NCBI GenBank assembly: GCA_046583315.1
Contig: JAYGCN010000225.1
Coordinates: 1 to 27,132 of the forward strand
Direction: 5' to 3'
Length of the DNA: 27,132 bases
Origin: Candidatus Hydrogenedentota bacterium
GTDB taxonomy: Bacteria; Hydrogenedentota; Hydrogenedentia; Hydrogenedentales; GCA-2746185
Part shown: one piece after another, positions 4,764 to 19,677 of the stretch
Layout of the letters: each line of letters opens with the position of its first letter
Position numbering within the stretch: position 1 is the first letter of the stretch
Notes under the pieces: generated by a model
Database searches by the model: none
What the model saw: the letters and a program-made list of their open reading frames with translations, nothing else
What the model was told of the DNA's origin: nothing
Position numbers and translations under genes: made by a program

Positions 4764-6092
4764 ATGACCTCAAGCCCGCTTGTGCATGTACTCATAATCA
4801 ATTGGAACGGCCTGGAACACCTGCCGGCCTGTTTCGATTCACTCGTAGAATCCGCTTATGCCAACGCCAAGTTTATCCTGCTGGACAACGACAGTGATGA
4901 CGGTTCCGTAGAGTTTGTGAAAGAGACCTATCCGGACGAGTCCCGTGTCGAAATACTCAAACTCGACTCCAATTTGGGTTGGTCCGGTGCCAACAACGTA
5001 GGCATGCAAGCGGCACTGGATGCCAACGCCGACTACGTTTTACTGCTCAACAACGATACCCGTGTCGAGCCAGATTTTCTCGAACACCTCGTCGAAATGG
5101 CGGAGTCTGATAAAAATATCGCTGCATTATCGCCGCGCATCCTGATGTACGACGAACCCCAGATCATCAATTCCCTGGGACTCGAAGCCTCCGTGATCGG
5201 GGCTGGTTGGGATACCGCCATCGGTCGCGTGGACAACCCCTGTTGGGATACGCAAAAACCCATCCTCGGCGTATGCGGCGCGGCGATGTTCCTGCGCGTA
5301 AAAGCCCTCCGAAAAACAGGCCTGCTCCCCGAAAATTTCGGCATCTACCTCGACGATCTCGACCTTTGTTTGCGCATCTGGAAGGCCGGATACAACATTC
5401 ATCTATGCTACGCCTCCGTCGTGTTTCATAAATTCAGCGCAACGATGGGAGGCGCAAAACAATCCCATAAGAAATATTACCTCAACACCCGAAACCGTAC
5501 ACGCATCGCGATTCGGCATTTTCCGATCTCACGATGGCCCTACATAGACTTGAAATTCTTCATCGGCGAATGCAAAGCCCTGGGTCGCGGTGCGCTGAAC
5601 GGGGATTACTGGAAATTTCCCGTCCACCTGCGTACCTGGCTGGATGCCCTGCTTTATCTGCCCATCGGACTGAAGTTTCGCATTACCCAAAAACGTTCCC
5701 GAAAGGGCGAAAACGATATCTGGTCAATGATCACCAAGGACAAACTATTTTTTCCCGGCGTACAATTTCCGAAAAACGGTTTCTATCCCGAAACGACTCT
5801 TGATGATGAAAACTGGAGGCCCATGGCCCGATGCGCGTCGTTCCAGCATGAAGGTGGGGGACTATCCCTCCGACTCCATCCATCTTCACCCGGCCCGATC
5901 ACGCTGACTGATACCGATGGCGCGACCTACACTATTTCTCCCGAAGATTCCGCTGCGAAACACTTCGATTTTGTAAGGGGCGAAATTTCCATTGAAACCC
6001 ACGCCCTCACCAAGGTCGAGACTCAACATCGCGTCCGTGACATCGGTGCGTGGCTCGCAATCAATACAAAGAAGGATGCCGATGAAGAGTAA
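4764..6092 (+). CDS. Glycosyltransferase family 2 (WbbL/rhamnosyltransferase-like) with C-terminal extension
   Basis: VLIINWNG, LLDNDSDDGS, NLGWSGANNVG, LLLNND, CGAAMFLR, YLDDLDLCLR, VVFH motifs. The GT2 domain begins right after ATG 4764, so the ORF-track start at 4455 is an overextension. Confidence 0.88.
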   Translation: MTSSPLVHVLIINWNGLEHLPACFDSLVESAYANAKFILLDNDSDDGSVEFVKETYPDESRVEILKLDSNLGWSGANNVGMQAALDANADYVLLLNNDTRVEPDFLEHLVEMAESDKNIAALSPRILMYDEPQIINSLGLEASVIGAGWDTAIGRVDNPCWDTQKPILGVCGAAMFLRVKALRKTGLLPENFGIYLDDLDLCLRIWKAGYNIHLCYASVVFHKFSATMGGAKQSHKKYYLNTRNRTRIAIRHFPISRWPYIDLKFFIGECKALGRGALNGDYWKFPVHLRTWLDALLYLPIGLKFRITQKRSRKGENDIWSMITKDKLFFPGVQFPKNGFYPETTLDDENWRPMARCASFQHEGGGLSLRLHPSSPGPITLTDTDGATYTISPEDSAAKHFDFVRGEISIETHALTKVETQHRVRDIGAWLAINTKKDADEE

Positions 6093-8217
6093 TCGAAATA
6101 TTTTGTTTGGGTATATGCTCCTGGCCGTGCTCGCCGTCACGATTGGCGGCTTCCTCGGCTCCTACAGCGTTCCGGAACTCGAATCATTACAGCTCCTCCC
6201 CTCAACAACAGAGCGACTCGAACAAACCGCGATAAAACGGATCAATCACAATTCCCGGTTCTATTTTTCGATCGCGCCAGGGTCATATCTCCCCGCCATC
6301 CAAGAGGAGATGCGCTACGCACGAACGGCTGGCCTCACCGACTTTATCGTTCAAACCCCCTTGCCCAGATCCGATGAGGAGCGCAAAGAACTGGGGGTGA
6401 CTCTTGAGCAACTCTTCGCAGGTAACGAATCGGACACCTATTGGCTTGCTGTCGATTGCAACCCACCGATGTCCTGGTTACGCGATCATCCTGATGAGGC
6501 CGTCCTGGACGATTCCGGCGAAGCCGTCCGGCCCAGCATCACATCGCGTCTCTGGATCGATAATACCCGTTCCAATCTGAACACACTGCTCGCCGCACTC
6601 GAATCACGACGAACAAGCGGGGTATTCACCGGCATCCTCTTTGAAGCACTGACCGACGGCCTTTGGAAACAAGGTGAGTTTCGCGATACGACTCCGGAAT
6701 TCACCGCGCATTTTCGACGATGGCTCCAGACTAAATACATCAACATCAACTTGTTGCACGCGGTGTGGAGTGACGATACCCTATCCGACTGGAATGACAT
6801 AACCGTCCCGGCCGACCCGTTAGAACCGACCAACAACGAGGTCTTCTTCGATACCGAGACGCAACAACGACAAATCGACTATGCACAATTCATCAGCGAA
6901 GAAACGGCCGGAGTGATCTCGAGCATAGCGTTCACAATTCGAACAGAAACCTCCGACACGTTTTCGATCTACGCCTCCACGGCCAATGTCCTTTCCGGTG
7001 ATGCCGCCGACGCAGGAACCTGGCACATCGGCGCGCTCCGGGAAAGCGCGCTCACGGGAATCGCAAGCAGGAGCCCGTCAGCAACATTTCGAGGGCGTTT
7101 GGCGACCCCGGTACTCCCGGGTTTCAGTTATATTTACCTGGATGCGAGCTTTACAGGAATTCAATACGACCCTGCATCGGAAGAAATCGTGGTTCCACCA
7201 AATTATGACGCGAGCATACTGCAGCAAAGTTTGACCCGCAACGCCGCACTCACCGCGACCCATGAGACGACGTGGGCCATAAGCGATACACAAGGGACCG
7301 GAACCTTTGCCCATGCACCCTTATGGAAGGATATTCGCGAGTTACTTGAACTCCGCGCAACCGTGCAAGATGATTCTGAATCCTCGCCCCAGACACCCTT
7401 GACGCTCGTCCTGGATAACACGAGTGTCTTTGCCGTACACGATGCCACGTTCGTGCAACAAATTTTCCTGACCGCACTCGGAACCGCGGCGCGATCCGGA
7501 TTTCCGATCGAATGGAGAACCGTAAAAGAAATTCTCGCATTTGAATCCGACACGCCACCGCTCTACATTTTTCTCAACCTCTTTTCCATGAATCCTGAGG
7601 GACGCGACTCGCTGCATGCTGCGTTGGCCCGTCAAAACGCCACGGCGATCTGGCTCTATGCGCCCGGCTTCATCGATACGCTTCCCTCAATCGAAAACAT
7701 ATCGCTCCTCACAGGAATTGAAACACTCCAACGAGAACCCGACTCCAAACTCGGCTCATTGTTCGCGTTCTCGGGAAACTGGATTCGAGAGAACCAACCG
7801 TTCAGCGAGTCCCGCATCATAAATCCCTCGTTTCATACCAACGACGAAACCGCCGATCCCCTGGCACGCTACCAGGACACACTGGAAGTCAGTGCCGCGA
7901 TGAAGTTTCATGAAACGGGATGGACATCAATTGTGCTCTACGATCCCTTCCCGACACCCGGCTTCATTCGCGACCTGCTTTCGATTCTCGCCACGCCCAC
8001 CGACGTTGCTATCTATCCCCAGCAAGGTAATCCCTTGATATCTCGATTCGGCAATACACTCGTCATGCACTCCGACAAAGCCGCTAAGACACGCCTCGAA
8101 TTTTCGAGCCCCCGAAGCGCACGTAATCTGCTGGATTCAACCGAGGGCTGGACCAATCGGGCCGATATCAGTGTTTCGTTGCAACCAGGCGAGACCAAAG
8201 TGCTGCGTCTGGACTGA
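6082..8217 (+). CDS. Membrane-anchored GH42/beta-galactosidase-like protein, catalytic residues apparently degenerate
   Basis: N-terminal hydrophobic anchor; PPMSWLRDHPDE, PSITS..W and FRRWLQTKY.....LHAVW resemble the GH42-type TIM barrel; LYIFLN...AIWLYAPG resembles the trimerisation-like domain. GAAGGA SD; overlaps the GT2 stop. Confidence 0.65.
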   Translation: MKSNRNILFGYMLLAVLAVTIGGFLGSYSVPELESLQLLPSTTERLEQTAIKRINHNSRFYFSIAPGSYLPAIQEEMRYARTAGLTDFIVQTPLPRSDEERKELGVTLEQLFAGNESDTYWLAVDCNPPMSWLRDHPDEAVLDDSGEAVRPSITSRLWIDNTRSNLNTLLAALESRRTSGVFTGILFEALTDGLWKQGEFRDTTPEFTAHFRRWLQTKYININLLHAVWSDDTLSDWNDITVPADPLEPTNNEVFFDTETQQRQIDYAQFISEETAGVISSIAFTIRTETSDTFSIYASTANVLSGDAADAGTWHIGALRESALTGIASRSPSATFRGRLATPVLPGFSYIYLDASFTGIQYDPASEEIVVPPNYDASILQQSLTRNAALTATHETTWAISDTQGTGTFAHAPLWKDIRELLELRATVQDDSESSPQTPLTLVLDNTSVFAVHDATFVQQIFLTALGTAARSGFPIEWRTVKEILAFESDTPPLYIFLNLFSMNPEGRDSLHAALARQNATAIWLYAPGFIDTLPSIENISLLTGIETLQREPDSKLGSLFAFSGNWIRENQPFSESRIINPSFHTNDETADPLARYQDTLEVSAAMKFHETGWTSIVLYDPFPTPGFIRDLLSILATPTDVAIYPQQGNPLISRFGNTLVMHSDKAAKTRLEFSSPRSARNLLDSTEGWTNRADISVSLQPGETKVLRLD

Positions 8218-8221
8218 GTCC

Positions 8222-8250
8222 TTGATTCCTTGGCTCCCGCCACCTATAAT
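8222..8250 (+). promoter_or_regulatory. Sigma70 promoter for the riboswitch operon
   Basis: TTGATT (8222-8227), 17 bp spacer, TATAAT (8245-8250), directly upstream of the riboswitch. Confidence 0.75.
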
Positions 8251-8297
8251 GCATAAACATTTATTCGAAGAAAGGAGGACTCGAGCTAGAAAACATA

Positions 8298-8494
8298 CTG
8301 CGGTATTGGGAAGAACGGTGAAAATCCGTCGCAGTCGCGCTGCTGTAACCGGTTACGAAATCCACATCGAGGCCACTGTCCAAAAAGGATGGGAAGGCGT
8401 GGAAAGTAGGACGACCCGGAAGCCAGAAGACCAATTCGCACAAAGAATCACTTGACTGGCCTTCGGGCACCAACCTGACAGACGCGAAATCTGT
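8298..8494 (+). ncRNA. Cobalamin (vitamin B12) riboswitch, aptamer ~8298-8440 plus kissing-loop hairpin 8478-8494
   Basis: Conserved elements in the expected order: GGGAA-n-CGGTGAAAATCCG, GCAG-TCGCG-CTGC-TGTAA, GCCACTG, GGGAAGG and the B12 box AGCCAGAAGACC. Closing helix TGCGGTATTGG/CCAATTCGCA. The loop of downstream hairpin ACAGA-CGCGAAA-TCTGT is complementary to L5 TCGCG. Confidence 0.93.
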
Positions 8495-8511
8495 ACAAAG
8501 GATCTATCACC

Positions 8512-10461
8512 ATGAAAAAAATTTCGTTGGCAATCGCCTTCAACTCCCTTCTTACTTCCACCCTCTTCGCCGAAATTCCCAGCATTGATGACTTCCGCGT
8601 GGTCCCGCAATTTCCGCAGCCAGCCGAATTCGCATTCGGCGTCACAGGCGCTACCACCACCGACGGACGTTTTATCCTCTGGGATGGCGACACCGTCTAT
8701 CTTCAAGCCTCTCCGGGTAGCGACGAACTCGCCCCCATCGCAACAGGATACCCCGGCGACCCGGGCTTTATCGCACTGTCGCCCGACGGACACACCATCG
8801 CACTCGGAAGCGGATTCAGTGCCGAACTCTACTTGCTCGATATCAACAACCCGGTGGACGGCGATCCTGCTGCGTCCATTGCCGTACCCAGTCACTTCGG
8901 GGGCGCCTTCCTCACTCAATCCCTCATCCTGATGGATAGAGGCAAAGACGACTTCTCCGGCTCCGAACTGGTGGTAATCGATCTCGACGCGATGCCTGAT
9001 CCCGGAACACTCAGTGATCGCGTTCAATCCGCCCAAACCGTACTCGAATTCCCAGCTTCCGATATCACGTCGAACGATATCATCATCGAAAAACCGGCCG
9101 GTTCCTATTCAAGTAAGATTCACATTGATCATACGCGCACAAACCTCTACACCATGGATGCCTTCACTGGAGAACTTCGCTATTTCAGTGTAATTGAGGT
9201 CATTCAGGCCGTCATAAACAGCACAACGCTCGATTGGGCCACCGACGGAACCGCCGTCGGCCTTCCCGGCGATTTCTTTACAGGTGGAGTAGCCGGTATC
9301 AACCCCGATGCCCAACTCATCATCGGTGGCTCCTCCGGCTTCGGGAGTCCCGGTGGCGTACAATATATTGACCCGGAAACACCCGCCATGGTGCTTGCCA
9401 CACTCGACCCCGCAGGCACGCAGCCCTACTACGATGTCATCTACAATCGTGCTACTGACGAAACGATCGCCATCGACGCGACCTTCGGCCAGCCCCTACA
9501 AGCCTACGCGCGCACCTCAGCCATCGGTCCCGTGCCGCCAGAGTCCCCCTGCGAAATCGTGGAAGATGTTCTTTTGCAGTGGGAAGCCTTCAGCCAAGCA
9601 TACGGACTTACGCCGGAAACGGCGGACATCAATCTCGACGAAATCCCGGATCACGCCATGCTTCTGCTTGCCCTTGATGGTTCTTGCAACACGGTCGACC
9701 CAGTGGGTGAAGCGACCCGAACGGCATACGACCTGAATCTTGATGCCTTCGATGCCGAAGTCGGTGCCGCAGCAATCGTCGATTACCGCGAGTTGATTGC
9801 AATCCTCATGCTGATGAGTGACGATATGCATACCGACCTCCGGACATTCCTGAATGCCAACAGCATTTCACTCGCCAGCACATACGAGGTGGTCACCTGT
9901 CTCGAAGGGGGTGAATGTTTCCCTGAATTCGTTGAGAATCCAATATTCCCCGATCTCTCCACCCGCTCTGCAATCGAACCCTATTCTGCCGAAGGGGACT
10001 TCGACAACGACACATTCACCAATCTCACTGAATACCAGAACGTGATCGCCAATGGGGGAAATGCAACCGATTTCGTAGTCGCGGCTACTGCCCCAACATT
10101 GGACGGCACCAACACCATACGTACACACGCGTCGAGCGGTGGGTGTTTCATCGCAACGGCCGCGTACGGTACGCCAATGGCAACGGAGGTTGAAACACTT
10201 CGCACGGTTCGGGATACCTATCTTCTCGATAACGCCCTGGGCGCAACATTTGTGGAAACCTACTATCGCTTGAGTCCGCCCATCGCGGATGTCGTTTCAA
10301 AATCACCAACGCTACGCGCAGCAATACGCGTTGCACTTGCGCCGGTCATTTTGCTCGCGAAACTGATTATTCTGGCTCCGGCATCCCTCCTGATTCCGGG
10401 AGTATTCGTGCTGGTGGCAGGAATGATTCGCCGGAACCGCGCGCGCCGCGTCAACGCCTAG
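8512..10461 (+). CDS. Secreted surface protein with a putative beta-propeller N-terminal region and C-terminal CFI-box-CTERM domain; first gene under the B12 riboswitch
   Basis: Signal peptide MKKISLAIAFNSLLTSTLFA; beta-rich repeats (FIALSPDG, LYLLD, LVVID); acidic Ca-binding-like GDFDNDTFTNLTEY; GGCFIATAAYG...LRTVRD..L..N..G..FV..YY..SPPIA followed by a TM helix and basic tail. AAAGGA SD at 8497-8502. Confidence 0.85.
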   Translation: MKKISLAIAFNSLLTSTLFAEIPSIDDFRVVPQFPQPAEFAFGVTGATTTDGRFILWDGDTVYLQASPGSDELAPIATGYPGDPGFIALSPDGHTIALGSGFSAELYLLDINNPVDGDPAASIAVPSHFGGAFLTQSLILMDRGKDDFSGSELVVIDLDAMPDPGTLSDRVQSAQTVLEFPASDITSNDIIIEKPAGSYSSKIHIDHTRTNLYTMDAFTGELRYFSVIEVIQAVINSTTLDWATDGTAVGLPGDFFTGGVAGINPDAQLIIGGSSGFGSPGGVQYIDPETPAMVLATLDPAGTQPYYDVIYNRATDETIAIDATFGQPLQAYARTSAIGPVPPESPCEIVEDVLLQWEAFSQAYGLTPETADINLDEIPDHAMLLLALDGSCNTVDPVGEATRTAYDLNLDAFDAEVGAAAIVDYRELIAILMLMSDDMHTDLRTFLNANSISLASTYEVVTCLEGGECFPEFVENPIFPDLSTRSAIEPYSAEGDFDNDTFTNLTEYQNVIANGGNATDFVVAATAPTLDGTNTIRTHASSGGCFIATAAYGTPMATEVETLRTVRDTYLLDNALGATFVETYYRLSPPIADVVSKSPTLRAAIRVALAPVILLAKLIILAPASLLIPGVFVLVAGMIRRNRARRVNA

Positions 10462-10480
10462 TTACCGGGCGATATCAATC

Positions 10481-12172
10481 ATGCGCGCGCCAACCGCCAT
10501 AGGTGTATTTGCCATTTTCCTGGCCTCGAGTCCAGGGATCGCCGAAGATCCCTGGGCCGATGCCGTGGTTTCCTACACTGCGACCGACCCCGTCACCGGA
10601 TATACCGATACCACAGCCGCACTTGGCGAGCCCATCGGTTTCAGCACGTCCATTCCGGTCAATACCCACAATTCCGTGAATCAAGTCCTAAGCCTGGGTA
10701 CCCCCGCGGGTAATCCACGCGGACAGCTCACCGTATCCTTCGACACACCTATCGAAGACCATGCCGATAATCCCTTTGGCCTCGACTTCATCGTCTACTC
10801 GAACGCCTTCTGGGTAGGCGGCGATCCCCAAAAACGATTTCAGGAACCCGCCATTGTAGAAATCAGTCCCGACGGGACAACCTGGTACATGATCCCCGGC
10901 AGTCGAAACTACAGCTACTCGGGCGGCACGGTTCCAATCGTGAACGAAACAAACGGCGGCGATAATTCCTCCGATCCGGAACTCCTCGCAGGAACCATCA
11001 CAAATCCCAACTCAACCGATGGCAACAGTTCGAACGATGACATCGAATACAACTGGGGTTACGCCGAACTCTCCCCAACCATGCCCGCATACCTTGACAA
11101 CTACCTTCGGCCCGACGATCCCGGCGCCGTTGGAGTGACCGCGCGAAGTGGGGGAGGCGATTCCTTCGATATCGCTTGGGCCATCGATTCCAGCGGCTCA
11201 CTCGCCAACCTTACATCCATTACCCACATCCGAATCACACCCTTCATCAATCGCACGATGACCGTCGGCCTGGCCACACCCGAAATCATGGCCGTCGCAG
11301 ACATCGCGGCCGATATCGACAGTGATGGCGACGGCATTCTCGACGACTACGAAACGCGCGTCATCTCAACGGACCCCTCACGCGCGGAAAATACACTGAT
11401 TCCACTCGAAATCCCCGCCACCGAAGGGGGCAGTCCGGCTGCCACGCTTCTCGGCACCGCGCAGGCCCTCTCAGGCAACGCTCTGGCACTCTATTCGACC
11501 GGTGATCGGGTCAGCGATACCCTCGAAACCATCGTCGATCTGACCACTCCGGCTCCAACGGCTGGCACTATCAACGGCTCGGCATCTCAATTGAGCGAAG
11601 CGTCCCTTCAAATCGATTCCACGGTCACCGATTTCCTGTCTGAAGAAGTCGATTCCGCGGAAATTACCATTCAGTATCTACCTTCCCAGATCCAGAGCCT
11701 GAACGAGGGAAGTCTTGAACCCTATCGATTCAATGCCGGCACCTACGATCAAACCGGCATCACCACCATCCAGAAGAACGCTCAGGGAAATTCCATTACT
11801 TTCGACAGTCAGTTTTCCGGGCTCTTCGTGCTCGCCTCTACCAGCGGCAGTGGTAAATCGAGGGCCCAAAACGTATGGGTCGATTTCAATCACAACGGCA
11901 TCCAGACCGGCGCACAAGCGACACCGTACAGCGCGATATCCGAAAGCCTCCTGGCCGTCACCAACACCGGTACGCTACATCTCGATGCCGCGACGACCAC
12001 AGAAGCCATTCTCATCAACCAAGCCGTGACCCTGCAATCAACCGGCGGAACCGTTCGCATCGGATCCGCGCCACCCTCCGATCCAATGCCGCTCCTTGGA
12101 ATTTCGGAGTCGCGCGACTCAGGTTATGTAACGATTCCCATCCGCGATCCGAAAAAGGAGGATAAACCATGA
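10481..12172 (+). CDS. Secreted cell-surface protein with a BtuH-like (putative cobalamin-binding) N-terminal domain
   Basis: Signal peptide; motif string [45 protein letters not shown] matches, from memory, the cell-surface proteins of Bacteroides B12 loci (BtuH class). Also a DSDGDGILD Ca-binding loop and a C-terminal VWVDF...VRIG module. The CDS is certain; the function is inferred. Confidence 0.7.
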
Positions 12173-13014
12173 AAACTCCTCGCACAACAGGCTTCACGCT
12201 CATCGAATTGCTCGTCGTCGTCGCGATCATCGGCCTTTTGGGAGCGCTACTCCTGCCCGCGCTCAGTCGCGCACGTTCGCAGGCCCGCAACATGGAATGC
12301 GTGAACAACCTACGACAACTCTATCTTGCGAGCACCATGTTCGCCGCCGAAAACAATGGTCGCTATGTAGCGGCCGCGCCCGATATCGCCGAAATGGGCG
12401 GCGGACTCAATCGCTGGCACGGGGTACGACCTGCGCTTGACAAACCTTTCGACAGTCAACAAGGCCCGCTCGCAGAATATCTCTCCTTCGGCATCGTCAA
12501 AGACTGCCCCGTTTTCATTGAATTCCGGGACGACTCGCAAGCCCCCAACGCCTTCGAGTCCGGTACCGGCGGATACGGCTACAACTCGGCCTACATCGGC
12601 GGCACCGCCTATCAAAACACCTTCCCCGACTCGAATCGACTAACCACACTCGACTCTCGCGTCCGAAACCCGGGCAACACCATCATGTTCGCCGATGCTG
12701 CCTTACCCCAAGACGGCTACATCATCGAATACGGTTTCATTGAGCCTCCCTATTACCCGACACCCGACGCACCGCAAGGAAACGTCGACTGGGGATACAC
12801 GTCTCCCTCAATACATTTTCGCCACAACGGCCGCGCCAACGTCCTCTGGAGCGACGGTCACGTCACAAGCGAGAAAATCACCTGGACCCCCGAAACCAAT
12901 GTGTACGGAGGAGACAATCAAAAGTGGGGGGTGGGCTGGTTTGGCCCCAGAGACAACCGCCTTTTCGACGTAAGCCATCGCGATGCCTACAAAAGCGTAG
13001 CCGCGGACCGTTAA
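12169..13014 (+). CDS. Prepilin-type N-terminal cleavage/methylation protein with H-X9-DG C-terminal motif (DUF1559-like pseudopilin)
   Basis: [40 protein letters not shown]...GYGYN and [16 protein letters not shown] (H at 12823, DG at 12853-12858). AAGGAGG SD and ATGA overlap with the preceding gene. Confidence 0.93.
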
Positions 13015-14795
13015 TCGGACGTAGATTCGACATCCGATGCGGTTATCAGAACCTTCATGCCCTTTGGAATTAGTTCAAACACCTCAATCACATCGTCGTT
13101 TGTCAGACGAATGCACCCGTGAGACGAAGGCACCCCGATTCGCGCCTCATCGTTTGTTCCGTGGATGTATATATACCGTGCCATCGAGTCCACATTACCG
13201 CCGCGGTTTAGTCCCTTCTCCAAACCATCCAACAACATCACCCGCGAAAGCACAAGATCTTCCGTCGTATCTTTACCCGGCAACCAGATTTCGCGCGTCG
13301 CCGTTCTCGAGCGAAAAACTTGACCCCAAGGTGAATCCGCCCCGATTTTTGTCTTGACGGCATGCCAGCCCAGCGGGGTTTTCTCGCTGTCCATCATCGA
13401 ACCCACACCGTTCGTCGCCGACGCGCAACGCGCCTGATACGTGATGGTATCGCCCTGCACAATCCGCAGCATCTGTTCATCAATCGATATCCAAATGGCC
13501 GCGTCATCCCCGACACGCCCAGACCAATCCGCATCCGCAAGAATCGACTTCGCCTCGTCTGACAAGCTACTCGCCTCGGTGTGACTCTGATATTTTTTGA
13601 TTACCATATTCTGCCCCTCAATCGTATCCGCCATCACTCGACTGCCTACCGGAACCGTTACAGTCACGCCTAGCTCCGTAGCATAACGCATCGTCACGCG
13701 CCCATCCGGAACAGGCACTTGTATCCGCGCAGACGTGATCGCCCCTGGAAAACGGGGTGATACGTCAATGGTGTTCCATGCGGAACGGGCCGGTTTCAAT
13801 CCAAACACGTATTCTGGAATCAAATAAATTGGCGTTGGATTTTCCTCGAATGACTCCAGAAAGGTAAGTAAATCCACGCCCAATTGAGTCTCGCCCGCCA
13901 CAAAACAGGCCTCAATTACATAGGGAATAAACAACGGCCCACAATCGAGACCCCACTTACGAATTAGCTGAATCGTCGGCTCAATCCCCTCATCCGGCAT
14001 CAAACCCACCAACAGGGCCAGCGCGTTCGTCACTACGGAGTGATGCGTAGGTGGCTCGTTCCTCGTCTCGTGATCCCAAAATAGTTTCGCCTCATCATCC
14101 CAGAACGCATCCAGGAATTCCCGCTCTACCGATTCAATTCGTGTCACGAGTGCAGCATCATGCACTCCGAATTCATCATACAATCGCTCACACGATTTCA
14201 GCGCTCGATAATAGAACGTTTCCGTAATCGCGTTGCGTTTACCTTGGAACCCCTCATAGTCAACGCCCGTTTTCAACTCCTCCGGCCAATTCCGGGCGTT
14301 GCGAGATCGTCCATCCAACATCTTGATCCACTGCGGCATCGCGTCACGCACAAGGGTCTTCACGTAGCGCCGATCATCCGTGTTTAGATAATAGGTCTCC
14401 AGTATCACCGGCCAATGTAACGAACCCGCCATGACGCTGCCGGGAATAAGGGTAGGTACTTCGGATTCGGAATATGTAGGTTGAAACACCACACCCAAAG
14501 CCGATTTCGTATACCACTCGTCCGGCATCACATAATATTGAGCCCGAATGCCTGGAGTCGGGTCCGGCCAGAAGGAAGCGTGTGGCCCACGCAATACGGA
14601 ATCATAGTAGGGCGTATCAAAACCGTTCCACGCATCGCGGCTCGCCGTCCACGCATGGTTCAACAGAGAATCAGACACCTGCACCGAACCCGAGAACCTT
14701 CCCGCGTTCGTTTCAGCGTCTGTTTCCCCCGAAACGACCTCTGATGTAATGAATGCCTGACACACAATCGCCAAGCAACATGCTTTTCGAAGCAT
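13011..14795 (-). CDS. Secreted fusion protein: degenerate GH78 alpha-L-rhamnosidase-like region plus C-terminal L,D-transpeptidase (YkuD) domain
   Basis: Signal peptide and GGAGG SD. N-terminal part: [42 protein letters not shown]...VSP..VPVPDG. C-terminal part: [29 protein letters not shown] with catalytic His/Cys intact. Confidence 0.85.
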
Positions 14796-14822
14796 CGACC
14801 ACCACCTCCATCGATTACAACT

Positions 14823-14883
14823 ATGGTACCATGCCCGGCGTGCCGATAAAAGAGAGAAGCGATACCCACAAAATAGATATACT
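14823..14883. promoter_or_regulatory. Putative divergent -10 elements
   Basis: Minus strand TGgTACCAT (14831-14823, inside palindrome ATGGTACCAT) ahead of the LDT fusion; plus strand TATACT (14878-14883) ahead of the GH38-like gene. Confidence 0.35.
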
Positions 14884-14944
14884 CAGACAGGGGAGCGGGA
14901 GTTCCCAACGACCCATGCGGAACGCTATTTTGAATTCAAATTTT

Positions 14945-17900
14945 ATGAAACCTCTCCTGACTGCTACCATTCTCACGAGCGTCCTCGTACAGTCGGTTAC
15001 GGCCATCGCCCAGGAAGACCTCAGCACCATTCTCGACCGCGGCACGCCGGCAATTTGGTACGTCTGCGGCCCTTTCGAATCCGATCTGCCCAACGGAATA
15101 CTCGATGCCGTCACCGCCAACCAACAACCCCTTGGTCGTTTCGACTTCTTCTCGTCCCAAGGCGGCACCAGTCGGTTTCAACCTTCCCACGGTCTCGAAA
15201 TCAAAACACCCTCCGGTAAAGCCACGTGGCTGCGAATACGTGCCGACGAGCCGACCGTTGACCTCTCACCTTTTTTCGCCGAACGCGACTCGGGAATTGC
15301 CTTTGCTGCATTTTTCGCCGAGTCGCCGGTCCCGACACAAGTCCTCCTCGAACTCCAAACGATTCTGGGCGTGCGCGTGTTTCTCAACGGAGATGAGTTG
15401 AAGAATATTACGGGCGGTCCGATCGGCTTCACTGGAGTCGAGTATATCGTCGCGAATTTTCGAGCCGGCGAGAACCTCCTCCTGCTCGAAATTCCTGGCA
15501 TTCACCTGGAATCGCTGGCCGAGGCATACAATATACCTCCCGCACTCTTTCCAAATGCCCTCCTCAAAAACAGGTCCCTCCTCACTCCGAAGACCGGATT
15601 CGAATTCATTCTGAGACTGCAAGAGGTCAAACCTTTCGAAAATATCGTGTATGCGACGCAACTCGTGAATACCGGGATTTTTTCCGGATCCGGGGACAAT
15701 GTTTTTCAAGATGTCTGGCTTACTCTATTCAATCCGTCGGAGGAACCTTCTGCTTCGCTTGAGTACTCTGGAATGGCCGTAGGCGCGTCGGCACGCTTCC
15801 AGAAGATCATTCCACCAATTCCGCCTCGTGAACGCCACCTTGAGCGCATTTCAATCCCCATAGCCGCAGCAATTCCCGGCCAGCCCATCAGCGTTCAATC
15901 CAGTCTCAGCCACAATCTCGAATCCGCGCGCTGGCAGTCCTCCGTGGTGACCGCGATTCACCCGAAAGCCGCCGACCTGTTTTTTGTGCCGCTGCCTGAT
16001 GATTCAGAACAACGGCAGGCGTCCCGGAATTCAGACCTTGTTCATTCCCAAAAGAGCATTCAAGACAAAATCAAACTCGCCAAAGAGAATGAAGACTACG
16101 GATTCAGTCTGGGCCCTGCGGAAAACTGGTTTCCAGTACTAATCAATGACCCTGAATTGCGCCAAGACCTCGCCCGATTTCGCGATATTCGTTCCATAAC
16201 CGCGTGGAATACCCATTCGCGCATCGACCACCGTATCGTCAACGGCGAGACCCTGATTCGCAACCTGCAATACGGAACCGCCCTATCGAATGCATGGCTT
16301 AGCCTCCCGCAATCTTCGTATTGGTCGTGGAACGCGCCTGCAATTGCCCCGCAACTTCCCCAAATCCTGAGCGACTCCAGAGTACCCGGCCTCATCCACA
16401 ATGTAGATGCCTTCGGTTTACCATCGCTCTATTATCAACTGGGATTGGACGGCTCGACACTTCTGCATCGCAAGAAGGCGAACACTCCCGCACTTCGTAG
16501 CCTGCTCGACGTACATCACTCGTCCGCCGCTCAGCATCGATTCTGGCAGCTAGAACATATCGACACCGACCTGTTGGTCTACGAAAACCACGCCAACGCA
16601 CCCGAACCCTTCTGGACCGAAAATATATTGCCCCTGCCTGAAGCGATCCCGTCGATCACCGTCACCGGAACAGGCGCCGACCGCTATTTCGCGTCCTTGC
16701 TTCAGAATCGCATGTTTCTGGATCGCTCTACACCCCTTGAATCCCGCCCTATACAAGAAGTTAACGCCTTCGGTCTGCTCAGCAATCCGGAACTGACTGA
16801 CCGCCTGGCGACGATACAACAAAATCTTCTCATCGCCGAAACCATGACCACGCTTGCAACACGAGTGGGGGCGGCGTTCCCCTACGATGCGATGGATCAC
16901 GCATGGCGATCACTACTCTCTCTCAGTACGGCCGGCAAACTTTCCGGACTCATACCTTCTGAACGCAAAACGGATTACCTCGCGCTCATGCGAACGCTAG
17001 ACGCAACCATCGGCTCGGTGACACGCGACGCGCTCACACAACTCGCAGGAAAAATCCACACACAGACCGATCTCTCCAATGAACAAGGCGCCCAACAAGC
17101 ACTCATCGTATTCAATCCCACGAACTGGACCCGAAGCGACCTGGTTGAATCCGTGATTCTGCCCACAGAAGGCAGAGGGTTGACGCTGTTGGATGACACG
17201 GGCCGAGTCGTTCCCTTCGAAGTGCTCGATTACACCATCGCCAACAACCTGCTCCGACGTGCCGTGATTCGATTCGTGGCAACCGACGTGCCCAGTCTAG
17301 GCCACAAAACCTATTTTTTCATCAACGCGGGAGGGCTTCCCCAAGAATCCACCGTCTTTACGCCGTTCATCGAGAATGATTTCTACCGAATCGAATTCAA
17401 TAACGGTGATATCGCATCGATACAATCCAAACGAAACGCCGAATTGAATTTCTCGGATCATCACTTCAATGAGTTGGTCGCGTATCACACCGTTTCAACG
17501 GGAGACGGCCCCGAATGGAACGGCGATATCACCCGCTCCTCGGAACAGACATCGACCGTAACGATGGAGCGCACTCCCTTGGGGCATCGGGCGACCATTA
17601 CAACACCATTCCTCGGAGGGACGTTGGAACGCACGGTCACGTTGCACTACGGAATTCCGCGAATCGATTTCGATATCCAACTCGAGGGAGTCTCGCGATC
17701 CCATTACCTATTCGCCGCTGAATTTTCCCCAACATCAAAACAGTTGATCGCGATCCTGGGACAAGCCTTTGGGCGCGTTCAAGGGCCACGCGATCGACCC
17801 GCGCCACTCTTCGATTCCAATACAACCACGCAGCAACTACCCGCACCCAACGTCTCCCAACGTCTCCCAACGTCTCCCAACGCTTTCACGCGCTCGCCCG

Positions 17901-19677
17901 CGGTGCTGGAATCGAGGTGGGGGACGACATCTTCGTTCCTTTGGCTCCAGCCATGATAATTCATCCCGGCACGATCCGCTCAATCGGTAGCGCCACCGAA
18001 CTGCAGCGAGCCCTGATGCACCAGGGCATACCGTCCTCCATGTACGCCTACGACGATTTGGACACCCAACCCGTCTGGCGCGACGATTCACTGATGAACT
18101 CCTTTCGCGACGATATCGGAATTGGCACGTTCTTTACCATTCTCATTGGAAACACCGATCAGAATCCATCCACTGAAGCCTTTTTGAGTCAATTCGACGA
18201 AGTGACACGCAAGACGCTCAATGATCATCTCTCCGAAGCACGACCCGTGTTCGCCTACGACGAAAACGTCCCCTTTGGGCATGCACCAATGCCTACGCTT
18301 GTGCTCGGCGGGGATACCAGTGCGATAACCAGCGCGATGGTGATAGACGTGGTTTCGAATCTTCAAGAAACAGGTGTAGTTACGCTTCAAGCCTCGCAAG
18401 CCCTCACAACCAATCCAGGAAAACGCCCAACTTCAGGATTCGCGATCCTTCATAAGGGCGCCGCGCTCAGCCAGATCCACGAAGACCGTCTTATCCATTA
18501 TCTCTACGCACCACCCGAATTCGAAGATCTCGAAGTTGCCGCTCAACCTCTACAGTTTCACTATGCGGTGTACCCCTTTGCCGGAGGCCTGCGTGATTCA
18601 CAAGTCGCCCACCAGAGTTACGCCTATTCAACGCCTTTGTTATCCACACAGACGACGCTTCATCCCGGCTCCACGCCATCTACCTCCAGCGCACTTGCCA
18701 CCGACGCTGAAAACTTTATCATGACCTCGCTCAAACCCATGCGCGCACCAGACGCATTGATGGGCGAAGACGCGCCATTCCCGGAAGCCCTGATTCTAAG
18801 GGGATACGAAACGGCCGGAGCGCGGAGCAAGGTTCGGCTCACTCCTGGATTCACCGCCTATGCAAGTGCGACCGTCACACCGCTCGAAACCGTGACAACT
18901 TCCCTCGAAACGGTGCAAGAGGATATCCAATTCGCCCTGGAGCCCTACGACATTAAATCCATCGCGCTTTATGTGCCGCCGATTCGCGGCGTACAGCCTG
19001 CCGAATCCCGTACCCTTGCCGCGCCCATATTCAGCCGAGGATGGACCTTTAATGAAGGCCCCATTCCCCTGAACGATCAACGGCTTGTCATACGCATTCA
19101 CGAGCCCTTACCCACGCCTGACGGCCGCGTCACCGTAACCGTAGGCAACAACTCATTATCCGAATCCGTCTCAGGTGATCTCACGGTGACCGTGTCGAAA
19201 GGATGGACGGTCGTGCCCGACACCCATACCTACCGACTTTCCCCGGGTGTCAGCGCGCAATTCGAAATGAACGTCACCCGCGAATCCGGCAACTCATCCG
19301 AATGGGGACTGCTCGCGCAAACCGAACACGAGGGGCGCGTCATTTACGATACACGTGCAACAGTCAACGCTCCTCTTCAGATCGAATCGGCGCGAAAGAA
19401 CAACGAATACCTGATCACCATCAAGAATCCCGGCGGACTTCCCCTCATTGGCCGAGCGACAATTGTGAGTAGCTTCGACCTCAGTGTCGAATCTGCACTC
19501 ATCCCCATTACGCCGCTCACCTCCGAATTTCACATAGCACCTTACGAGGAAAAGAGAATCCTGTACACACGGCACATTGCGGAAGAACCCCGCTGGCTTC
19601 ACGCGAAAATCACCGCAAATGGCCAGACGATTTATCACGTCATGACGCTCGATCCGACTGAAGCGCCAACACCTTAG
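14945..19677 (+). pseudogene. Large secreted GH38 alpha-mannosidase-like multidomain protein (with NEW3-like C-terminal domain), interrupted by a tandem-repeat frameshift into ORFs 14945..17956 and 17917..19677
   Basis: Signal peptide MKPLLTATILTSVLVQSVTAIA; WYVCGPF N-domain; GH38 hallmarks GETLIRNLQYG, QLPQIL, GLDGS, AWRSLL, LIVFNPTNWTRSDLV, VPSLGHKTY, IENDFYRIEF. The second ORF continues with FHYAVYP, TSLKP, LILRGYETAG, LEPYDIKS. Removing two 10-bp repeat units gives one 1570-aa ORF. Alternative start ATG 14915. Confidence 0.82.
17846..17882 (+). repeat. Perfect 10-bp tandem repeat (CCCAACGTCT) x 3.7
   Basis: Direct reading: cccaacgtct cccaacgtct cccaacgtct cccaacg. It coincides with the frame change in the GH38-like gene. 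Confidence 0.95.

Follow-up and report, generated by a model that had tools for sequence, protein, structure and literature searches.

How a diderm bacterium without TonB imports a cofactor of 1.3 kDa has so far been unexplained, and a small operon of Candidatus Hydrogenedentota bacterium bears on this question. The DNA analyzed here, referred to as the window, comprises positions 1–27,132 of contig JAYGCN010000225.1 from assembly GCA_046583315.1 (genome G000; 4.65 Mb, 96.66% complete, 5.38% contamination). Assignment of the genome to Hydrogenedentota is borne out by named homologues. Positions 8222–13014 hold a cobalamin riboswitch followed by genes for a beta-propeller protein (ORF1), a homologue of the B12-binding protein BtuH (ORF2) and a prepilin with an H-X9-DG motif. 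We consider it probable that this operon specifies a B12-repressed, TonB-independent corrinoid capture module, in which BtuH and the propeller trap the corrinoid, the pilin carries out the envelope step of BtuB and TonB, and BtuFCD completes the import; binding and transport of corrinoids by the operon products are predicted from sequence. Throughout the phylum the pilin seems to take the place of the customary outer-membrane importer of B12, which would constitute an undescribed uptake route. The locus ties both TonB-less uptake and the very large H-X9-DG/DUF1559 family to one ligand, with the riboswitch as a built-in reporter.

Association of the pilin with cobalamin riboswitches

The pilin head is found in 107 of 121 genomes of the phylum, including 82 of the 86 genomes of high quality. 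To measure its linkage with riboswitches we used 100 of the 109 loci from relatives together with the window (the nine left out were mostly fragments or same-genus repeats) and detected upstream riboswitches with an nhmmer model seeded from the window riboswitch. Of these 101 loci, 76 have a riboswitch upstream in the same orientation, among them all 57 loci with at least 6.5 kb of upstream sequence, while the 25 loci without a detected riboswitch all have less than 6.5 kb upstream. Joining Infernal hits to pilin matches links at least 65 of 110. Metagenomes were surveyed with a motif scan for the pilin, which gave 120 stretches, of which 80 were listed and 56 of these scanned with Rfam; the records carry no taxonomy. 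The metagenome pilins are 36–54% identical and often follow PEP-CTERM proteins. Riboswitches occur in 32 of the 56 scanned stretches, always on the same strand and upstream; the share is 30 of 37 where 2.5 kb or more of upstream sequence is available and 19 of 20 where there are 4.8 kb or more. The co-occurrence of this pilin subfamily with B12 riboswitches, which a preliminary description of this DNA had singled out for checking, is therefore seen in the phylum and also in metagenomes.

Three architectures were observed, with the riboswitch followed by the pilin alone, by BtuH and pilin, or by propeller, BtuH and pilin. By our own reading of the locus list, the pilin is the sole gene behind the riboswitch in 23 of the 76 riboswitch-led loci, and BtuH was not found in several of the pilin-only genomes. 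Because the pilin is kept in all architectures and BtuH is missing from several pilin-only genomes, we take the pilin to be the core part. The metagenome loci L294 and P0208 have the same order of propeller, BtuH and pilin, with PEP-CTERM anchors, and DUF4465 occurs in 6 of 31 neighbor proteins scanned at such distant loci. P0208 (906 aa) combines propeller, PEP-CTERM, BtuH, a second PEP anchor and pilin in one frame, and is either a polyprotein or a set of tandem genes without stops.

The pilin gene (12169–13014, + strand) has its own ribosome-binding site, AGGAGG, and encodes 281 aa beginning with a class III leader. The product passes TIGR04294 and TIGR02532 (23.6 against a cut-off of 16.3 and 23.4 against 19), its match to DUF1559 (PF07596) covers residues 34–61 only (28 of 268 positions) and stays under the gathering cut-off (22.5 against 23.3), and the Atlas clusters it with N_methyl/DUF1559 at 0.98. 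The leader and methylation helix are conserved in every aligned orthologue, and the head motifs RWHG, GGYGYN and HFRH are invariant in 72 of 72. The clade is nearly single-copy, has invariant motifs of its own and keeps a constant regulatory setting. Eight other H-X9/10-DG pilin loci of G000, which serve as a control, all lie on contigs without a riboswitch; the claim of a ligand consequently covers two H-X9-DG clades, the second of which is described below, and does not extend to the whole family as had been suggested. No described function for H-X9-DG/DUF1559 prepilin-like proteins was found in the literature searched.

The riboswitch

The aptamer (8253–8450, + strand) scores 89 bits on the Rfam cobalamin model RF00174, for which the gathering score is 31.5 (E = 4.8e-21), and the match covers model positions 1–189; this confirms the assignment of the preliminary description. 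The aptamer lies 61 nt ahead of ORF1 and is the only RF00174 match in the genome. Two nucleotides before it ends a candidate sigma-70 promoter, TTGATT-17-TATAAT (8222–8250, + strand), with 10 of 12 consensus matches; promoter-like sites are not more numerous than expected by chance (3 observed, 2.9 expected), and hence it is the position just ahead of the aptamer that speaks for this site. The expression platform (8474–8502, + strand) contains a hairpin at 8478–8494 whose loop, CGCGAAA, is complementary to the L5 loop of the aptamer (UCGCG, 8335–8339), and a weak extension in which CCU at 8474–8476 pairs with the AGG of the ribosome-binding site at 8497–8502. No terminator was found in the leader, and the riboswitch therefore probably acts by translational repression. 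The fold energy of the platform is no better than that of shuffled sequences (z = 0.05). Among the 42 of 76 leaders of relatives that could be parsed by pattern, 38 have the L5 complement in a hairpin loop, compared with 6.05 expected by shuffling; a position-free version of this test does not discriminate, and the L5–L13 contact shows little covariation because L5 barely varies.

Tandem cobalamin riboswitches precede the operon at five loci (L030, L064, L066, L082, L193). Elsewhere in Hydrogenedentota, cobalamin riboswitches precede class I nrdAB at five loci, nrdD at one and a double 4HBT thioesterase at another (L164, L166, L167, L175, L176, L169, L163).

Uptake machinery in the genome and the phylum

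G000 is a diderm (two Omp85 hits) and uses B12, with six B12-binding hits, five of them over the cut-off, and ORFs that by eye resemble MetH and IcmF. There are two tetrapyrrole methylase hits, the cobU, cobT, cobS and cobQ genes of a same-genus genome (G037) gave no tblastn hit, and the organism seems unable to make the vitamin. Neither BtuB nor TonB_C was found in G000, in agreement with the absence of BtuB proposed earlier, and no riboswitch-led BtuB barrel with TonB was found. There are four MotA/ExbB hits and only two TonB-dependent receptor loci, neither of them BtuB: a TOL_0244-type gene split by a frameshift beside a YfiR-like gene (L019, C114:5240–7803), and a truncated receptor gene (L018) on the short contig C145 (3690 bp), whose GC content of 0.494, against 0.532, indicates possible contamination. 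TOL_0244-type receptors adjoin YfiR/DUF4154 and histidine kinase genes (L019, L162, L201–L211), and their occurrence in genomes without detected TonB suggests a role in signaling. Among the 86 high-quality genomes of the phylum, TonB_C is present in 8 and not found in 78, a barrel is present in 26 and FecCD in 85; most of the receptors looked at are of the TOL_0244 type.

The inner-membrane step is differently represented. The operon holds neither btuB nor btuFCD, as the preliminary description stated, but for BtuFCD this absence does not hold in the genome, where contig C32 carries a btuF-F-D-C-like cluster without a riboswitch that comprises the single FecCD permease of G000, an ABC ATPase and two binding proteins. 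The best matches of the cluster are BtuC/BtuF-type models, under cut-off, and its orthologues (36–63% identity) follow a riboswitch in six relatives, which were chosen for that adjacency. The cluster is likely btuF-D-C, and the pilin would accordingly replace the outer step only. Type IV machinery encoded elsewhere, a further element of the earlier proposal, is indeed present: G000 has seven PilT-family retraction ATPases over cut-off, nine secretin hits and PilB/GspE-type ATPases. Separately, an operon of PilC-like, PilB/GspE-like and small pilin-like genes (C11:33805–39670) ends in a gene for an H-X10-DG-like pilin and encodes a candidate assembly machine for H-X9-DG-type pilins.

Apparent operon loss and pilin replacement

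Two natural experiments are available, namely a same-genus genome that appears to have lost the operon and gained btuB-like and tonB genes, and four genomes in which a second clade replaces the pilin. In G037 (84% complete) the three genes and the riboswitch are all absent, and the genes that flank the operon in the window are directly adjacent on one contig. These are an upstream gene for a 741-aa protein with a weak GH42 match (5992–8217, + strand) and a convergent gene with a YkuD L,D-transpeptidase domain (13011–14795, − strand), which closes the operon without belonging to it. Since the pilin adjoins the YkuD gene in other members of the family, the gap in G037 looks like operon loss. The same genome carries the clusters cobU-cobT-btuB-like and tonB-btuF-D-C-cobQ-cobS, on contigs with matching GC content (0.444–0.453; L196, L197, L347). 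The presence of a BtuB-like protein and TonB where the operon is missing favors the idea, already put forward in the preliminary description, of a pilin in place of BtuB.

The second clade, of H-X10-DG pilins with 67–100% identity, occurs in G101, G102, G103 and G127, all of which are without the usual RWHG pilin; it is riboswitch-led in three of them, and in the fourth the contig stops just upstream. Its members are about 400 aa in mature form with an unrelated head (L214:1565–2821, L193:2479–3987, L353, L354), and their corrinoid specificity may differ. Distant riboswitch-led pilins (36–38%) are found in G001 and G002, and in G041 the operon runs off the contig end.

The partner proteins

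ORF2 (10481–12172, + strand; 563 aa) follows ORF1 after 19 bp and overlaps the pilin gene in ATGA. It consists of a BtuH B12-binding (H) domain at residues 22–277, a ZU5/GAIN-like domain at about 300–455 and a short C-terminal domain. Sequence and fold comparison both make it a homologue of BtuH2 and of the BtuG1 H domain, which bears out its designation as BtuH-like. By HMM alignment mapping, the metal/phosphate site of BtuH (Asn399, Glu406, Asp522, Ser582, Glu584) is kept in the ORF2 family as N108 (56/56), E122 (55/56), D206 (56/56), T266 (S or T in 55/56) and E268 (54/56). Among corrin and base contacts, Tyr510 corresponds to Y194 (56/56) and Phe401 to F110 (46/56), and the Leu578 column is mostly hydrophobic. 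BtuH is present in 88 of 121 genomes of the phylum, and its range extends beyond Bacteroidota. The leader of ORF2 has no lipobox cysteine. Most ORF2 orthologues have a C-terminal membrane anchor, and orthologues of both ORF1 and ORF2 end in a hydrophobic segment and basic tail; in 26 of 63 cases BtuH shares one reading frame with the pilin, and the basic tail of the anchor then serves as the prepilin leader. ORF2 of G000 itself has no such anchor, and the surface location given earlier for the two proteins is accordingly no more than a possibility.

ORF1 (8512–10461, + strand; 649 aa) has a signal peptide recognized by eye, a six-bladed NHL/SMP-30-like beta-propeller at residues 21–340, an unassigned middle part, a CFI-box-CTERM domain at 545–613 (NF041770, 93.4 bits against a cut-off of 40) and a hydrophobic tail. 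The CFI-box tail occurs in only 4 of 101 loci and is a lineage-specific feature. Proteins of the ORF1 type define a family of six-bladed propellers under B12 regulation that is new, and ORF1 is a candidate corrinoid-binding or relay protein. Another riboswitch-led secreted family (460–560 aa, with a C-terminal anchor and, in two members, a weak SBBP propeller repeat; L171, L172, L174, L178, L183, L188, L194) occurs mostly in genomes without the ORF1 family and is a candidate further B12 binder.

Proposed mechanism and alternatives

These results lead us to the following model. At low cobalamin the L5–L13 kissing contact of the riboswitch would remain unformed and leave the ribosome site free. 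ORF2 would then bind the corrinoid through its BtuH domain, as its homology and regulon suggest, and the ORF1 propeller is probably a second trap or relay. The pilin would be cut by prepilin peptidase and become a ligand-specific minor subunit of a general type IV filament machine of G000, the extension and PilT-driven retraction of which through a secretin would bring the corrinoid into the periplasm. The machines for this step are present; carriage of the corrinoid on a retractile filament through the secretin is quite possible, although we stop short of calling it likely. The unlinked BtuF-D-C of C32, identified by orthology, would move the corrinoid across the inner membrane. More tentatively still, we suggest that in TonB-less lineages the work of TonB-dependent receptors falls to an importer built on a retractile type IV filament, with H-X9-DG pilins as its exchangeable receptor subunits, each specific for a ligand. 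The RWHG clade would receive cobalamin from BtuH, DUF4465 and propeller binders and carry it through the secretin, and the many paralogues would import other large nutrients.

The tails of the binders and the lack of assembly genes in the operon would also fit a periplasmic trap without a filament, where an inner-membrane pilin, as a membrane-tethered binding protein, and anchored binders pick up corrinoid that has come in by a porin or an open secretin and deliver it to BtuF. The hydrophobic and basic tails of ORF1 and ORF2 orthologues, the use of the tail as prepilin leader in fusions, and a Legionella pilin that reportedly aids iron acquisition without PilT or PilD (PMC13170364) can all be read this way. 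We nevertheless regard the trap as unlikely, as every aligned orthologue retains the class III leader and methylation helix and the operon loss in G037 is matched by an acquired outer-membrane receptor and TonB rather than by a periplasmic protein. Cobalamin is, moreover, too big to pass general porins.

In another reading the pilin has no contact with the vitamin and serves as an adaptor or pseudopilin in the export or display of BtuH, propeller or DUF4465 proteins, or as an adhesin to B12 producers under B12 shortage. An export role would leave the outer-membrane step unexplained where TonB is absent. The frequent fusion or co-transcription of the pilin with secreted binders agrees with such a reading, and two clades with unrelated heads (no profile hit between them) that fill the same slot fit a scaffold; the strong conservation of the three head motifs and the riboswitch-led loci with the pilin alone, several in genomes where no BtuH was found, make it improbable in our view. 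It is very hard to credit that the operon raises local supply only and an unrecognised BtuB-type or other outer-membrane channel imports. The two receptor loci and four MotA/ExbB hits of G000, btuB-like fragments in two relatives (G032, G077) and the incompleteness of the assemblies could hide such a channel, but the G000 receptors are split or truncated, only 1 of 55 barrel hits has a listed riboswitch within 10 kb, and that hit is followed by DUF4154 and histidine kinase genes, and TonB_C was not found in the great majority of high-quality genomes.

Several observations weigh against TonB-independent capture by the pilin operon. The exchange in G037 is one event in an incomplete genome, and its BtuB-like protein scores 339 bits on TIGR01779, below the equivalog cut-off of 599.7. 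No substitute was found in six of the 14 genomes without the RWHG pilin. G077 combines a riboswitch-led btuB-like fragment with the pilin operon, and G032 a btuB-like fragment and TonB with a riboswitch-led pilin; these fragments are on 1.8–1.9 kb contigs in genomes with 5% contamination, and the coexistence means that exclusion between pilin and btuB is not strict. Trp511 and Trp577 of BtuH2 are absent from the ORF2 family, and His476 and Gln333 are not mappable. The C-terminal anchors could keep ORF1 and ORF2 at the inner membrane on its periplasmic side, the operon contains no assembly genes, and the locus counts overstate the support because related genomes are not independent. Each part of the model is testable by ordinary binding and knockout assays.

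Other features of the window

The pilin stop and the stop of the YkuD gene overlap in TTAA at 13011–13014, and the coordinates, gaps, overlaps and riboswitch of the operon given in the preliminary description all hold in sequence and profile searches. Two overlapping ORFs at 14753–19677 (1067 and 586 aa) have GH38 C-terminal domains; a single 1586-aa frame of G037 matches the first, and the window may therefore hold a frameshift near 17917–17956. A DegT/DnrJ-like aminotransferase gene, named by eye, is apparently split across two overlapping frames at 105–1204.

Comparison with known systems

The riboswitch, BtuH and BtuFCD are of known kinds. What is new is the lack of TonB across the phylum (TonB_C in 8 of 86), the exchange seen in G037, a second clade of pilins and a family of propellers under B12 regulation. 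No report of a dedicated pilin in the BtuB slot or of a riboswitch-pilin pairing was found in the literature searched, and the word pilin is absent from the accessible part of a preprint on DUF4465 (10.1101/2025.08.21.671476).

The closest parallel is the Btu relay of Bacteroides thetaiotaomicron, in which BtuJ, BtuH and BtuK pass the vitamin to BtuG-BtuB and then BtuFCD (PMC8941943, PMC13616437). Both systems are controlled by cobalamin riboswitches and include a BtuH domain, a partner with a beta-propeller and BtuFCD for the inner membrane, as well as DUF4465 (BtuJ) partners, here at distant loci. They differ in that no BtuB/TonB was found here and a pilin occupies that slot, that the binders carry C-terminal sorting tails rather than lipoprotein anchors, and that the propeller appears to be six-bladed whereas BtuG and BtuK are seven-bladed. 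The E. coli type, BtuB-TonB-ExbBD with BtuFCD, resembles the present system in its riboswitch-led first uptake step and in the BtuF-D-C orthologues, but the riboswitch-led genes here do not encode a beta-barrel, and TonB_C was found neither in G000 nor in most high-quality relatives. With other H-X9-DG (TIGR04294)/DUF1559 prepilin-like proteins the pilin shares the class III leader, N-methylation helix, H-X9-DG motif and both NCBIfam domains over cut-off, and is set apart from them by its nearly single-copy clade, motifs and regulatory context. Type IV filaments of competence pili take up DNA. Legionella PilA2 is reported to be a major pilin that aids iron acquisition without the pilus machine (PMC13170364). 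In both cases, as here, a type IV pilin is connected with the entry of a large solute through the envelope; the pilin described here differs in being dedicated, ligand-repressed and accompanied by dedicated cofactor-binding partners.

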